Part shown: piece after piece, positions 1-5,316 of the stretch
Layout of the letters: each line of letters opens with the position of its first letter
Numbering within the stretch: the stretch's first letter is position 1
DNA from: Myxococcota bacterium
Lineage (GTDB): Bacteria; Myxococcota_A; UBA796; CAJQPC01
Direction: 5' to 3'
Assembly (NCBI GenBank): GCA_036012755.1
Contig: DASCPX010000005.1
Coordinates: forward strand, 1-18,168
Length of the DNA stretch: 18,168 bases
The notes under the pieces: generated by a model
The model's input: the letters and a program-made list of their open reading frames with translations, nothing else
What the model was told of the DNA's origin: nothing
Databases searched by the model: none
Program-made: the position numbers and the translations under genes

Positions 1-82
1 TGCCGCCCTTGCTGCCGCCCTTGCTGCCGCCCTTGCTGCCGCCCTTGCTGCCGCCCTTGCTGCCGCCCTTGGAGCCACCCTT
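1..82 (-). repeat. 12-bp coding tandem repeat (GCTGCCGCCCTT)n encoding (SKGG)n
   Basis: Five perfect copies at 11-70, a partial copy at 1-10 cut by the window edge, and a synonymous-variant copy GGAGCCACCCTT at 71-82. In frame with the spike CDS. Confidence 0.95.
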
Positions 83-1264
83 CGAGTCACTCTTGTCGTC
101 TCCTCCGAAGCCGAAGTCGACGTCGCCGACGCTGCCTTCGATGCGGCCGCTGGAGTCGGCGCTGAGGTCCACGTCGTCCGTGTCCACTCCCGCGGACCAC
201 TTGCCGCTGCTGTCGGCCTTTGCGTCCACCGTGTCGGTGTCGAGCTCGGCGGACCACTTGCCCGAGCTGTCACCGCTGGCCTTGAACGCCCCGTCGCCAG
301 CTTCGACCGAGCCGCTGACCTTTCCGCTGGAGTCGACGCTCGCCTCGGCCTCCACGCCGCCACCGGATGCGCTGACCGTCACGCCGTCGCTGCTGACATC
401 GACGTCGACGCCAGAGCCTCCGGCACCACCGCCAGCCCCGCCACCACCCGCGCCGCCACCACCCGCGCCGCCGCCACCAGCACCGCCGCCACCGCCGCCA
501 CCACCGCCACCGGAAGACGACGAGGACGACGAGGACGACTCGCTGCTGTCCCCATCTTCCGTCGTCGGGGCGTGCTTGTGCTCCGGGAGCTCCTCTGTCT
601 CCTTCGACGGAAACGGAGCGCCGCCGTTGATCGCGACCAAGGCAGCCTGGTAGGTGGCCATCTGGCCGCCGTCCTGAGTCGTCATGTCCGTCGACTCGAA
701 GACCGCGGTCATCTTCGACTCCATCGAGAGCGTCTCGCACTCGAGCTTGAAGTCCTTGCACTTGATGGAGATCTTCTCCTTGGCCTCCCAGATCGTGTCC
801 TTGTCGCAGTACTCGGTGATGGTCTTCTCGGCCGAGTCGAGGACCTGGTAGATGGGCGCGGACGTGACGTCCAGGCGCGTCGACGCCTGAGCGCCCAGGC
901 CGATCTTCTCCTCGCCCTCCGTGTCGTCGAACAACACCATGTGGTCGTTTCTAGACCAGAAGACGCGGATGTTGTTCTCCTCGTCGTCGTTGTGGTACGG
1001 CTCGGCGAGGTCCTCGTCGCCGTTGTAGACGGCGCCCAGGACGTAGGGCGACATCGAACGGTAGGCGAAGCCGAGCACGACCTCGGTGCCCTCGTCGGGG
1101 AGGATGACGAGCCCCCTCTCCACCCCCGCCATCGGCGTGATCATGCGACACCACGAGGACTTCGGCAGATCCTCGCCGTCCACCGGGTACTCCACCAACA
1201 CGCGGTGGAGTCCGTCCGGGTCCTTGTTCTCCTTGACGATTCCGACGACGACGCCGTTGATCAT
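2..1264 (-). CDS. Gp5/GpV-type (phage baseplate assembly protein V / VgrG OB-fold) spike protein with long low-complexity C-terminal extension; 3' end beyond the left edge
   Basis: Translated by hand (absent from the ORF track because there is no stop in the window). ATG at 1264 follows GAGGAC: MINGVVVGIVKENKDPDGLHRVLVEYPVDGEDLPKSSWCRMITPMAGVERGLVILPDEGTEVVLGFAYRSMSPYVLGAVYNG...NNIRVFWSRNDHMVLFDDTEGEEKI. This matches the Gp5 OB-fold pattern (W-R-xx-P-x-AG, P-xx-G-x-EV, LG-xx-YN) and parallels the adjacent gene. Open for 421 codons to the edge. Confidence 0.9.
   Translation of the reverse strand, partial: MINGVVVGIVKENKDPDGLHRVLVEYPVDGEDLPKSSWCRMITPMAGVERGLVILPDEGTEVVLGFAYRSMSPYVLGAVYNGDEDLAEPYHNDDEENNIRVFWSRNDHMVLFDDTEGEEKIGLGAQASTRLDVTSAPIYQVLDSAEKTITEYCDKDTIWEAKEKISIKCKDFKLECETLSMESKMTAVFESTDMTTQDGGQMATYQAALVAINGGAPFPSKETEELPEHKHAPTTEDGDSSESSSSSSSSSGGGGGGGGGGAGGGGAGGGGAGGGGAGGGAGGSGVDVDVSSDGVTVSASGGGVEAEASVDSSGKVSGSVEAGDGAFKASGDSSGKWSAELDTDTVDAKADSSGKWSAGVDTDDVDLSADSSGRIEGSVGDVDFGFGGDDKSDSKGGSKGGSKGGSKGGSKGGSKGGSKGG
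101..334 (-). repeat. Four degenerate 19-21 aa coding repeats beginning DSSG(K/R)
   Basis: DSSGKVSGSVEAGDGAFKASG / DSSGKWSAELDTDTVDAKA / DSSGKWSAGVDTDDVDLSA / DSSGRIEGSVGDVDFGFGG, with Asp codons starting at 334, 271, 214 and 157 (spacing 63, 57, 57 nt). Confidence 0.8.
413..547 (-). repeat. Poly-Ser run followed by Gly-rich (GGGA)n linker inside the spike extension
   Basis: Minus-strand translation SSESSSSSSSSS GGGGGGGGGAGGGGAGGGGAGGGGAGGGAGGSG. Confidence 0.9.
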
Positions 1265-1274
1265 GGCGACGTCC

Positions 1275-1955
1275 TCAGTTGATCTTGGTCATCTGGGCGG
1301 TCAGGACCAGCATCTGGCCGCCGTTGACGGTCAGGGCCTGGGTCGCCTTCAGCTCCGCGGTCTTGCTGGCCTTCATCGAGATCGTCTTGTCGGCGCCGAG
1401 GATGAACTCCTTGCACTTCATGGAGATGGTCTCCTTCGCCTCGATGATGATGTCCTTGCCGCTGTAGACCGACAGGACCTTCTCGGCGGAGTCCCAGATG
1501 ACGCGGATCTCCTCGTTGTGGGAGATGAGTTCGATCCGCTCCTCGCCGTCGGTGTCGTCGAAGGTGACTCGGTGCCCCGACCGGCTCTGGAAGACGCGGA
1601 GGTTGTTCTCCTCGTCCTCGTTCGCATAGGGCGGCGTGTCGACGCCGTTGTAGAGCGAGCCAAGGACGATGGCGTGGTTGAAGTCGCCGTGCATGAAGCT
1701 GACGAGGACCTCGTCCCCGATCTCGGGGATCGTCATCCAGCCGCGCTCGCGTCCCGCCATGGGCATGACGAGCCGCGCCCAGTAGGACTCCGGCATCTCG
1801 TCTTCGCTGCCGTCCGGGGGAGGCGGCAACGAAGGAAACTTCACCTTGACGCGGCTGAGCTTGGCGTCGTCGACGTTGTCCACGACGATGGCCTCGACGA
1901 GACCCGGCATCTGGCCGGAGACCGGTCGGCCGTGCCGATCGGTGACCTTGGGCAT
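1275..1955 (-). CDS. Gp5/GpV-type spike protein (phage baseplate assembly protein V), 226 aa, stand-alone (no gp27-like hub domain)
   Basis: AIVVDNVDDAKLSRVKVKFP, YWARLVMPMAGRERGWMTIPEIGDEVLVSFMHGDFNHAIVLGSLYNG and SRSGHRVTFDDT, followed by beta-helix-like strands ending TKIN. Strong GAGGAGG RBS. Confidence 0.92.
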   Translation of the reverse strand: MPKVTDRHGRPVSGQMPGLVEAIVVDNVDDAKLSRVKVKFPSLPPPPDGSEDEMPESYWARLVMPMAGRERGWMTIPEIGDEVLVSFMHGDFNHAIVLGSLYNGVDTPPYANEDEENNLRVFQSRSGHRVTFDDTDGEERIELISHNEEIRVIWDSAEKVLSVYSGKDIIIEAKETISMKCKEFILGADKTISMKASKTAELKATQALTVNGGQMLVLTAQMTKIN

Positions 1956-1956
1956 G

Positions 1957-2062
1957 GCACCCTCCTCTAGAGGGGTGCTCGATCAGTGCGGTGCGAACGC
2001 ATGGCGGGCTCCCCGAGGGAATGGTTGGAACGGAAGAGGTGAGCCCGCCGTGTTCGCCGTAC
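1957..2062. promoter_or_regulatory. Structured intergenic region: RBS-sequestering hairpin (1957-1978) and long stem-loop (about 1986-2062)
   Basis: GCACCC (1957-62) and GGGTGC (1973-78) enclose the SD of the 1955 gene. GCGAAC-GC-ATGGCGGGCTC (1993-2011) is complementary to GAGCCCGCCGTGTTCGC (2041-2057). Function is inferred. Confidence 0.5.
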
Positions 2063-2088
2063 GGCCATGACGCTCGGGCCCACTCGAA

Positions 2089-2842
2089 TCATGACGGGTT
2101 TGAGGGCGACTGTCGAGGTCGTTTGACGAGGTGGAGGGGCTCGCAAGAGTACTCGATGGCTCTGCGAGGACCGACGGCGAGCCGCCAGATGAGCCCGTCC
2201 TCCTCGACGAGGAGATCGTAGGCCACCAACTTCGAGCGGAGCTCTGCCGATGTGAAACGAGCCTCGGGGCGATCGTCGAAGGCGTAGGGACAGGTGATCA
2301 GCAAGGTCCCTCCTGGCCGAGCACGAGCCCGGAGTGCTGACACGAGTCCAGGATGTTCAGCAGCAAGACGCCGTCGAACTGCTCTCCATCGAAGGGCGGA
2401 TCCGCACCGTCCCCGCACACAGCCGGCCCCGGGTAGGTCCGGCACATGTCGAAGTCCTGGTCGACGCCGATGACGTCGCTTCGTCCATGCCAGCCGACTC
2501 CACAGCCGAGGTCGACGAGGTCCCCGTCGAGGCTCGCCACGATCTCGCGCACGGCGTGGACCAACTCGCCGTCCACGACGCCGTAGCTCTTCGCCAGCGC
2601 TCGTGGGGCTCCGAGCCGTTGGAGCACGTCCTCTGGCAGATCCCGCCGAGCCAGGACCGAGCCACGATGATGTTCGAGCCAGGCATCGAGGTCCCGCATC
2701 ACGATGGGAACGCCATCGACGACGGGGTGGAAGGCCGAGCAGGCAGGACAGCGCAGCCCCCCTCCCCCATGTGGAGGTGGGCACGGTGGAACTGCCCCTC
2801 CACGCTGCGCCGGCAGCGCGGACAGACCAGAGGGATCCTCAC
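2089..2842 (-). pseudogene. Trm112-like/Zn-ribbon plus class I SAM-dependent methyltransferase, split over three frames
   Basis: GTG at 2842 overlaps the PAAR stop (GTGA). Frame 1 reads MRIPLVCPRC...HMGEGG. After a shift in the G-run at 2757-2768, frame 2 reads LRCPACSAFHPVVDGVPIVMRD...DLVDLGCGVG...IGVD...GDGADPPFDGEQFDGVLLLNILDS. After a shift near 2311-2320, frame 3 reads PGGTLLITCPY...stop at 2089. Confidence 0.75.
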
Positions 2843-3159
2843 CCCCCGACGTCGACGTCGGGGCTGCCCTGGACGAGCGTGCCGATGCCGCCGCAGTGAG
2901 CCGTCAGATCGCCCAGGCGACACACGGAGATGTCGTTGACGGTGACCGTGGCGCTGCCGGTCATGCAGGCCCAGGTGTTGGGGCCGCAGCAGGCCGCATG
3001 GACGCCCGGATCCCCGATGCGGAGCACGGCCAGCCCGTTGACGAACGTGTTGGGAGAGCCCGAGACCGCGGGACCGATGACCGAATGCGAGCAGCATTTG
3101 CGGCCGTGGGAGTCCGCGGGGTTGAAGGCCATGTCCGTAACGCGAGAGACGACTGGCAT
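2839..3159 (-). CDS. PAAR-domain spike-tip protein, 106 aa
   Basis: GSPNTFVNGLAVLRIGD, GSATVTVNDISVCRLGD, HCGG.G.LVQGSPDVDVGG: three degenerate PAAR-type repeats with His/Cys clusters. RBS CAGGAGGGAG. Confidence 0.93.
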   Translation of the reverse strand: MPVVSRVTDMAFNPADSHGRKCCSHSVIGPAVSGSPNTFVNGLAVLRIGDPGVHAACCGPNTWACMTGSATVTVNDISVCRLGDLTAHCGGIGTLVQGSPDVDVGG

Positions 3160-3208: not shown

Positions 3209-4552
3209 TCAGAACTCGACGCGGGCCCCCGTGCCGATGTGGCTGACCCCGGCGAATGCGCCCAGCGCCGAGTCGGGCGGTCCCTGCACCCACGTCCCGC
3301 CGAGCTGCCAGCTGACGGCGTCGCCCTGCAGTACGTGGAGATCGCCGCCGGCGAGGACGCCGCGACCGTCGCTCAGCGCTCGGCCTTCCAGGGCCACCGT
3401 CGGCGTGATCGACCATCGCAGAAAGACCACGCCGTAGTCGCGCAGCTCCTCGCGGCTCCGCTCGGTGGGGAAGCCGTGGAGCCACTGCAGGTTCAGGTAG
3501 ACCTGCCCGAAGCCCCGGTCGACGCCGACGACCCACCGGGGGTAGACGAGCCCGTCCTGGCTGAGCTCGGTGGGGATCGGATCGGGGACCTCGTCGATGG
3601 TCCCCAGCCGCTCGAGCGCCTCCAGCTGCGACTTCGAGAACTGGACCTCGACGAACTCTGGTCGCACCGCGGCCACCTCGACCCAGCCGACGACGTCCCA
3701 GGCCAGGTCGCGCCGCCACTCTCCAGCGACCTGCTGCACTCGCGGGTAGACGATGGGCACACCGAGATCGACGCGATCGGAGTCGGTCTGGAAGCCCGTG
3801 ATGCGCAGCTCGCCGCCGACCTGCGGCAGGCTGTCGCGGCCGTGGTAGCCGGAGATGGCCCAGTCCCCGGCTCGGGTAGCCCAGAAGAACCGAGCACCTA
3901 CAGCGATGTCGGCGATGCGGTCCTCTGGGAGATCGACCCGGGACTCCAGGCGGCCGATCTCGTTGTCCCCCGCTTCGATGGAGTCCAGGGACGCCTGGCC
4001 GTCCCCGAGCACATCCACCACGTCCGTGGGCAGCAGGGCCGGCTGGAACCAGGGCACGACCGCGATCTCCAGCGACGCCTGCCCGCGGTGGGCAAGCGCG
4101 CGCAGCATCGGAGTCGCCAGCCGCTGGTCGAAGCGGGTGGGATCCTCGAGGTCGTAGGCGTTGACGACGTTGGCCGGGTTGAGTCCGTCCGCGACCCCCC
4201 AGTGGAGCCGCTGAGCCCCGATCCCGAGGTCCAACCAGGACCCGATGCTGGTGACCTGGGCCTCCTGCAGCTTCAGCGAGCTGTTCTGGACGAGGGAGAC
4301 GGTGCCTGCCTCCTCGAGGGCCTCCGCGCCCGAGGGACCGTGCACGCGCAGGTCCGCCTCGAGGCGAGCGTCGTAGCGCCCGTGCCGCAGGCGCACGTGG
4401 CCACCGGCGACGGCGGCGTCGTGGAAGTCCAACCAGCCGCAGTCGCCGAAGGTGTTGGCCAGATCACAACCCAGCCCTAGCCGGAGGTTGCCCTCGGCGT
4501 GCCCACCGACCTCGACATCCTGTGCCACAGCGAGGCCGATGAGCAGGAGCAC
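3209..4552 (-). CDS. Outer-membrane beta-barrel protein, DUF1302-like, 447 aa
   Basis: Short signal MLLLIGLAVA-Q. LGIGAQRLHWGVADGLNPANVVNAYDL resembles the G.Q...WG..D.....D.LNP.D motif. Amphipathic strands and a C-terminal Phe (ARVEF). An in-frame stop 9 nt upstream fixes the GTG start. Confidence 0.75.
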   Translation of the reverse strand: MLLLIGLAVAQDVEVGGHAEGNLRLGLGCDLANTFGDCGWLDFHDAAVAGGHVRLRHGRYDARLEADLRVHGPSGAEALEEAGTVSLVQNSSLKLQEAQVTSIGSWLDLGIGAQRLHWGVADGLNPANVVNAYDLEDPTRFDQRLATPMLRALAHRGQASLEIAVVPWFQPALLPTDVVDVLGDGQASLDSIEAGDNEIGRLESRVDLPEDRIADIAVGARFFWATRAGDWAISGYHGRDSLPQVGGELRITGFQTDSDRVDLGVPIVYPRVQQVAGEWRRDLAWDVVGWVEVAAVRPEFVEVQFSKSQLEALERLGTIDEVPDPIPTELSQDGLVYPRWVVGVDRGFGQVYLNLQWLHGFPTERSREELRDYGVVFLRWSITPTVALEGRALSDGRGVLAGGDLHVLQGDAVSWQLGGTWVQGPPDSALGAFAGVSHIGTGARVEF

Positions 4553-4561
4553 CTGTTTCTA

Positions 4562-5062
4562 CTAGAGCCGCGCGCCGACCAGGTCGAGCGTGATGTCGCA
4601 GGGATCGCTGGTGATGGTCGGGCAGGTGTCGCCCTGCGTGTTCGAGGTCGTGAGCGTTGCCGTCGCGCTGATCTCGCCGGCGCTGACGACGGTGATGTCG
4701 ACGTAGATCGACATGTCCGCCGTGCAGCCCGGGTACTGGTCGGCGTCGAGCTCGACAGCGGTCTGGGAGGCACCGTCGACGACCAGGTTCTGGGCGCCGC
4801 CGTCCACCATCGTGACCTCCATGTCGGAGAAGGGGTCCTGCAAGGCGATGGTGTAGGTCGCCGGCAGCTCGTCCCAGCCGGGAAGGTAGGTGGGGTTGGC
4901 CCAGTCGTTGGTGCTGTCGTCCCCATCCGGGAGGAAGACGGTGTTGATCGCCCCGTCGTAGCAGCCATCGTCGACGGCGGTCGTGGTGATCTGGAAGTCG
5001 CCGCCGGCGAAGTCCTCGGCGTCGTCCGTAGTGCAGGCGAGCGCGGTGAGCAGCAGGGTCAT
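4562..5062 (-). CDS. Putative lipoprotein, 166 aa, acidic and Thr-rich with four additional Cys
   Basis: MTLLLTALA-C lipobox-like start at ATG 5062. The extension to 5191 in the ORF track is Arg/Pro-rich and overlaps a divergent ORF. Confidence 0.8.
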   Translation of the reverse strand: MTLLLTALACTTDDAEDFAGGDFQITTTAVDDGCYDGAINTVFLPDGDDSTNDWANPTYLPGWDELPATYTIALQDPFSDMEVTMVDGGAQNLVVDGASQTAVELDADQYPGCTADMSIYVDITVVSAGEISATATLTTSNTQGDTCPTITSDPCDITLDLVGARL

Positions 5063-5115
5063 GGTGTCTCTATTGTGTTCCGCCGGGGGTCTATCACCGG
5101 ATAGGATCATCGGCG

Positions 5116-5316
5116 ATGAACGCACGGAATGCCGAGCGGCTCGCGGACGGGCTCTTTCGGGTGGGCTGCCGCCTGAAGACCCTCGTCCCACGACGCGTCC
5201 GAAGGAACCTCGACCAGCGTCTCTTCTATGCGATCTTCAACCTGACCCGCGTCACGAACGACGACTACGGCCAGGAGCCCGTCAGAACGAAGCGGACCAA
5301 GCGAGATCGAGGGTGA
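5116..5316 (+). CDS. Small basic hypothetical protein, 66 aa
   Basis: Fills the gap between two minus-strand genes. Codons mostly end in G/C, and DQRLFYAIFNLTRVTNDDYG looks protein-like. TAGGAT lies 8 nt upstream of the ATG. Confidence 0.55.
   Translation: MNARNAERLADGLFRVGCRLKTLVPRRVRRNLDQRLFYAIFNLTRVTNDDYGQEPVRTKRTKRDRG

Follow-up and report, generated by a model that had tools for sequence, protein, structure and literature searches.

The window analyzed here is a stretch of 18,168 nucleotides that makes up the whole of one contig (DASCPX010000005.1, or C5) of a 6.7-Mb Myxococcota assembly judged 96% complete. On its reverse strand it carries a PAAR spike-tip gene and two tandem spike genes, designated A and B. 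Given the findings described below, it is postulated with moderate confidence that A and B assemble into one heterotrimeric, PAAR-capped spike that would serve this genome's eCIS (extracellular contractile injection system). What is new is an eCIS form with a detached two-gene spike module. Since solved relatives are encoded by one gene, and mixed trimers of VgrG paralogs have so far been mainly a model in work on type VI secretion systems (T6SS), a two-gene spike that is fixed across a bacterial order offers a clean test case of three small proteins. None of the hosts found has been cultured, and that the two chains co-assemble is deduced from sequence evolution alone.

The two spike chains and their parallel change

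Spike A (positions 1275 to 1955, reverse strand; 226 amino acids; PF04717, E 1.3e-21) consists of an N-terminal arm, an OB fold, a beta-sheet region, and a blunt beta-helix that ends in TKIN. Spike B (2 to 1264, reverse strand; at least 421 amino acids; PF04717, E 1.7e-15) is an open gene, whose core (residues 1 to 213; 626 to 1264, reverse strand) has an OB fold, a beta-sheet region, and a beta-helix in register with that of A, and is without the N-terminal arm. The two share 43% identity across 219 columns (E 7e-50), and both match VgrG_rel only at about 370 to 539 of its 547 positions; they are thus paralogs without a gp27-like hub, as the original prediction, made from the letters of the window, had proposed. 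Nearest to A among solved sequences are the eCIS spikes 9GTR, 7AEF, 7B5H, and 6J0M, and a Foldseek search with a monomer model of B places 7AEF and 7B5H on top; the sequence and fold neighbors of both chains are the C-terminal halves of eCIS spikes. The AlphaFold2 monomer of B (predicted local distance difference test score, pLDDT, 79) has an extended helix and tail and is uninformative on assembly.

Comparison with relatives in the same order, which we take from a record name to be UBA796, shows what has been kept in each chain. Among 47 orthologs of A, mean column identity is 70%, and a 14-residue N-terminal arm is conserved. The beta-helix of B ends at the same column as that of A, and the lengths differ by at most one residue in 43 of 47 pairs. 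B evolves faster, with an OB fold conservation of 62% versus 77% for A. The A chains and the B chains each group together in a tree of N-terminal domains, so the duplication is old. At the junction (1265 to 1277, reverse strand), the stop codon of A overlaps a Shine-Dalgarno-like AGGA of B. Where the two genes share a locus, no more than 40 nt separate them in 42 of 45 pairs (median 9 nt); translational coupling of A and B is likely.

If A and B shared a trimer, each strand would pair with neighbors from both chains, and so, by our own reasoning, changes in one should be matched by changes in the other where the chains intertwine, but not within the OB fold. This expectation was compared with 47 pairs. 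The set leaves out G030 (a gap of N in B), G005, G037, G056, G057, G004, G011, G015, and partial or duplicate loci; it counts G002 twice, for two pairs, and includes G019, where B is not adjacent to A. In the helix, A and B from the same genome are 45.2% identical, versus 35.3% for A and B from different genomes, whereas in the OB fold the values are 45.7% and 44.9%. The excess in the helix persists after thinning to 11 distant pairs (42.9% versus 29.3%). Controls compared out of register yield no more than 2 points, so it cannot be put down to composition. Furthermore, the rate of shared codons at identical residues is no higher within genomes (0.637) than across them (0.667), and thus recent gene conversion is not indicated.

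A tree-aware test gives the same picture. Under a branch-load-matched null (1000 draws) on the N-terminal-domain tree, changes to the same residue on the same branch number 62 in the helix, where 22.4 are expected and the highest of the 1000 draws is 35. In the middle beta-sheet region there are 19 where 6.6 are expected, and in the OB fold, 12 where 11.8 are expected. These parallel changes are spread over 31 of 92 branches. In addition, a one-residue deletion in the helix is common to A and B in three pairs, and putative inward positions of the helix co-vary (z 7.5, the inward and outward labels being pattern-based). The original prediction had left the choice between a heterotrimer and two alternative spikes; on these values the heteromeric spike is now the leading reading.

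The HxH tail and the proposed PAAR cap

The tip of the proposed spike would involve the PAAR protein and a short tail on B. The PAAR gene (2839 to 3159, reverse strand; 106 amino acids; PF05488, E 8.8e-9) is of the Cys/His-rich type and is the single PAAR match in the whole genome; H18, C23, H25, H54, C57, C58, H88, and C89 are invariant in 25 orthologs. Beyond its helix, B has a conserved Pro-rich tail (557 to 625, reverse strand) with an H-x-H-[PA]-P motif (H229 and H231) that lies 15 residues beyond the last helix strand and was absent from the original account. Then comes a low-complexity extension (1 to 556, reverse strand) made of a Ser/Gly linker, Asp/Ser/Gly repeats, and GGSK repeats, open at the contig end. 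That account had spoken of a "decorated" spike. B does carry an extension, but its long part is of low complexity, variable, and missing in many relatives (0 to about 730 such residues beyond the HxH region; no Pfam domain was found in three long tails), and the conserved difference from A is the short HxH tail. Among 47 B proteins, 30 have HxH, 10 have one His, and 7 have no tail; HxH is present in 109 of the 120 best database homologs, a set biased towards tailed forms.

According to two sources, the usual rule is that HxH spikes have a three-fold iron apex without a tip protein, while blunt spikes carry PAAR (PMC12407873; bioRxiv 2023.02.25.529910). The phage P2 gpV and R-pyocin spikes with an iron apex resemble B in being stand-alone spikes with a C-terminal HxH; in B, however, HxH is not universal, sits behind a Pro-rich linker, and is encoded alongside a PAAR gene, although A could be the sole partner of PAAR. 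The window's type of PAAR is found in 21 of 24 genomes with an intact HxH versus 1 of 15 without. Because kin are not independent, this link is only a modest hint. Where B lacks an intact HxH (L143, L145-L149, L154-L159, L161-L163), the PAAR often has a longer His/Pro-rich first hairpin (HCH..HP), and some of the PAAR types in the L143-L163 set belong to other injection loci.

Taken together, these observations have led to the following model. A and B would be co-translated and would intertwine into one mixed trimer, which would dock on a single hub encoded elsewhere and would bear the PAAR protein as its cap. The HxH tail of B would then be an asymmetric, one-sided appendage running along the PAAR cone and helping to hold PAAR, rather than a three-fold iron apex; B's tail probably contacts PAAR. 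A ratio of two A to one B (A2B) is a guess, prompted by A being the more conserved chain and the one that keeps the N-terminal arm of the single-spike family.

Alternatively, two homotrimers may use the same hub, a blunt A3 capped by PAAR and a B3 with its own iron-binding HxH apex of the P2 gpV type, giving two types of particle. This arrangement is thought rather unlikely, though it has points in its favor: A is blunt and B mostly bears HxH, the sources cited above hold these to be the two spike architectures (PMC12407873; bioRxiv 2023.02.25.529910), a single spike sequence is given for each solved relative found, and surface positions co-vary. Yet in 17 of the 47 B proteins one His or nothing remains of HxH while B itself is retained, and both A and B are kept even where B has no HxH tail (7 of 47, and also the order of family f8, described below). 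HxH sits beyond a Pro-rich linker of 15 residues, intact HxH goes along with this PAAR and not in its stead, B is without the conserved arm of A, and putative core positions and single-residue indels are common to the A and B of one genome.

It should be noted that several points weigh against the mixed trimer. Outward and turn positions of the helix co-vary as much as or more than the putative inward ones, a result likewise in keeping with two homotrimers that adapt to a shared baseplate. Old gene conversion between the neighboring paralogs could yield the same pattern and would be invisible at synonymous sites, although paralog-specific positions persist inside the helix despite such possible conversion. 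HxH is, according to PMC12407873 and bioRxiv 2023.02.25.529910, the mark of a homotrimeric, PAAR-less iron apex, and the link of HxH to PAAR comes down to about three concordant clades versus four discordant cases on the tree. Within the order, A and B lie apart in two genomes, and B was not found in two fragmented assemblies. Lastly, in f38, a family of another class that also has multiple spikes, the own-genome excess is merely 1-2 points and is not helix-specific.

A tip module probably detached from its injection machine

The original prediction held that hub-less spikes suit an eCIS or phage-tail-like locus better than a T6SS, and would look for the core genes to the left of the window and in the rest of the genome. 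An eCIS, as against a T6SS or a prophage, is supported; the core is not beside the window but forms a separate locus on two other contigs, C87 and C119. C87 starts with genes for a cap (Pvc16_N), a sheath, a tube, a second sheath, a second tube (both tubes gp19), a 1102-amino-acid protein, and a CIS_tube-LysM protein; near these lie eCIS_core and AAA ATPase genes (AAA plus a winged-helix domain, 696 amino acids). C119 starts with a stand-alone hub of 348 amino acids, gp25 (GPW_gp25), baseplate J (Baseplate_J/TIGR02243), Tail_P2_I, and a CIS13-like gene. C87 breaks in a Gly-rich repeat similar to that of B and the repeat resumes at the start of C119, and from this we infer that the two contigs join. 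The CIS_tube-LysM protein (L007:1-1158, at the C87 start) has a GGSK-type low-complexity tail like that of spike B, and both tails break the assembly. The 1102-amino-acid gene (L007:1142-4447) and a divergently transcribed gene of 271 amino acids (L007:10421-11233) have no family matches, and both are retained in core loci throughout the order.

The hub and gp25 genes are 88 nt apart with no spike in between. The hub covers VgrG_rel positions 64-351 and so complements the spikes, and there are exactly two matches to Phage_base_V (PF04717) in the genome, spikes A and B. With these two, the one PAAR, and a spike-less core with one hub, the window module is most likely the detached tip module of a single Afp-like eCIS, and it likely serves the C87/C119 particle. 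Components of the eCIS core of Chen 2019 are all present, namely the Afp1/5 tube, Afp2/3/4 sheath, Afp7 LysM, Afp9 gp25, Afp11 baseplate J, Afp15, and Afp16, except that the Afp8 spike is not inside the cluster: its hub half is there, while its spike halves are remote in the same genome. As in subtype IIb, Afp8 is split, there is a single Afp11, Afp12/13 are present (the CIS12 and CIS13 matches being below cut-offs), and Afp10 is absent from the locus.

An origin of A, B, and PAAR as prophage tail remnants or as orphan VgrG/PAAR genes of a T6SS is very improbable, even with some PHROG baseplate matches and one weak Terminase_6N match, on an unlinked 4.6-kb contig. Family searches of the genome gave no match to VipB, Hcp, TerL_ATPase, or Phage_capsid (TssJ, TssL, and TssM were not searched), and no fused gp27-gp5 VgrG accompanied by Hcp and VipAB is present. 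No capsid or terminase gene, which the original prediction had named as a sign of a plain prophage, adjoins the pair. Phage records match A weakly (24-35%) and B not at all, the flanks are housekeeping genes, and across the order the spikes co-occur with an eCIS hub. Such an origin is largely refuted by the missing head and T6SS genes, the flanks, and the hub co-occurrence.

The separation of tip and core extends throughout the order. In 53 genomes outside family f3, a hub ortholog was found in 48 and an A ortholog in 47; both are present in 46, neither in 4, and only one in 3. Of the 47 genomes with an A ortholog, 43 have B immediately after A. None of 20 core loci of relatives has a spike or PAAR match, and gp25 directly follows the hub in 18 of them; conversely, no core gene lies in any of the 39 spike loci examined, which span 2-21 kb and include some contigs twice. 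In family f7 (L092, L095), the core locus stops at the hub, and the following 6 kb contain neither gp25 nor baseplate J, so there may be a further split of the system there. Spike triplets (A, an A-like chain with an HxH tail, and B) occur in two genomes, and G002 has an additional A/B pair (L079:1597-3716; G056:C268; G002:C100).

Family f3 shares this core locus and has a single blunt spike elsewhere (7 loci examined). That one spike suffices there lends something to a further idea, in which the particle would carry only A3 and PAAR, and B would bind the spike transiently, as an assembly factor, a decoy, or an adaptor for cargo. The faster evolution of B, its missing arm, and the tolerance of tails of very different length are in keeping with this. 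The idea is nonetheless quite improbable: the OB fold of B is complete, its helix matches that of A in length and in end, and no pointer to a non-structural role was found.

Related systems and the rest of the window

The original prediction held the system to be undescribed, which is not wholly so. PMC11937823 reports a core cluster from marine, uncultured Myxococcota (mostly UBA796) whose tube is highly expressed; this PLTS/eCIS-like cluster is likewise an Afp/PVC-like core cluster, drawn from MAGs (metagenome-assembled genomes) of Myxococcota, and is probably the same system. The terms spike, VgrG, PAAR, and gp5 do not occur in its text, nor do PAAR, Vgr, Phage_base_V, and "baseplate assembly protein V" in its two supplements. 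With the module at a remote locus, it is clear why surveys based on clusters would overlook the spike of an eCIS for which high expression has been reported.

PMC6899500 defines the eCIS core, reports a split Afp8 in subtypes IIa-c, and states that eCIS VgrG homologs are without C-terminal extensions. Of these lineage II subtypes, IIb is nearest in gene content, and the likeness covers all eight core component types, separate hub and spike genes, one baseplate J, Afp12/13-like genes, and no PAAR in the core locus. The concern that the pair might match a known subtype holds for the split of hub and spike, but two spike genes instead of one, their placement with PAAR at a remote locus order-wide, and the C-terminal extension of B set the present module apart. 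It conflicts with two published generalizations, that HxH spikes have no PAAR tip and that eCIS spikes have no C-terminal extension.

Solved spikes (Streptomyces 9GTR, AlgoCIS 7AEF, tCIS 7B5H, PVC 6J0M, and Afp 6RBK) share the OB fold and beta-helix; the solved eCIS spikes are fused hub-spike proteins of 529-643 amino acids from a single gene, whereas here hub-less chains come from two. Mixed trimers of VgrG paralogs have been proposed in T6SS models (a figure legend in PMC10433429 and the discussion of PMC7324665), where fused VgrGs mix optionally in a system anchored to the membrane; the present case is instead a fixed pair of hub-less chains, kept throughout the order, in an eCIS. A contractile injection system of Haliangiales is modeled with one truncated spike in the available part of bioRxiv 2024.12.19.629468, and that of PMC12923769 has nothing on spikes. 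In the literature searched, whose coverage leaves most subscription journals outside, no description of a two-gene eCIS spike was found.

A survey of the phylum (a sample of 301 genomes) found further tandem spike pairs in families f8 and f38. In f8, of another order (L129-L133; 5 genomes examined), both chains are blunt; in the four loci long enough to show it, the pair lies directly upstream of the sheath, and three tube-like genes come after the sheath. In f38 (L121-L128, L134-L136), two short spikes are followed by a third of about 1800 amino acids with an OB fold, a helix, a PAAR-like region, DUF6531, RHS repeats, and an end that varies and in one case matches a nuclease family. The PAAR likeness is one of motif only: HHalign gave a probability of 1.8%, Pfam PAAR matched 1 of 8 at E 0.1, NCBIfam and a PAAR-profile hmmsearch gave no match, and the AlphaFold2 pLDDT is 35. 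One f38 genome has four long Rhs-type spike copies elsewhere, which suggests that the long copies are exchangeable, toxin-bearing spike chains; a single hub match was found in 10 of 13 f38 genomes. In a spike tree (140 columns, many forks open), f38 forms its own clade (SH-aLRT 97) and f8 another (86); duplication consequently appears to have been independent in three lineages. Co-variation is also seen in f8 (35.5% versus 31.5%; p 0.025, n=5). The f8 and f38 patterns offer an analogy, not proof, for the window. It is tentatively suggested, as a thought that may well prove wrong, that Myxococcota have repeatedly made the eCIS spike an obligate heterotrimer so that one chain can bear an asymmetric appendage. 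Here this would be an HxH tail clamping the PAAR tip, and in f38, an exchangeable third chain with a PAAR-like domain, an Rhs shell, and a variable toxin end, the spike being a one-per-particle toxin cassette.

As to the window itself, its main outlines agree with those first drawn: a PAAR gene and two co-oriented spikes with 10 nt from the A stop to the B ATG, no sheath, tube, or baseplate gene by family searches, and a Myxococcota host, with relatives labeled mostly as Myxococcota, Deltaproteobacteria, or Proteobacteria MAGs. Because window position 1 is the first base of the contig, B is cut within the GGSK repeat. The loose end at position 2 matches C112:69-98, the sole match among 163 loci; thus B probably ends on C112 after more Gly-rich repeats and is followed there by unrelated genes.

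Between PAAR and spike A lies a gene for a Trm112-like zinc ribbon and SAM methyltransferase (2089 to 2842, reverse strand), which overlaps the PAAR stop and is spread over three frames by two frameshifts. In relatives it is conserved at this place and intact (273-294 amino acids; Methyltransf_11/23 and Trm112p matches). Contigs of 4 runs from 2 studies (2 runs marked as a possible source) list no indel relative to the window at this gene. A sigma-70-like site at 2116-2088 (reverse strand) is a consensus match only, and no RNA run was listed as containing the stretch. The remaining window genes have housekeeping family matches, apart from two genes at 3209-5191 (447 and 209 amino acids) without Pfam matches, which also occur near the spike module in G002, G014, and G018.

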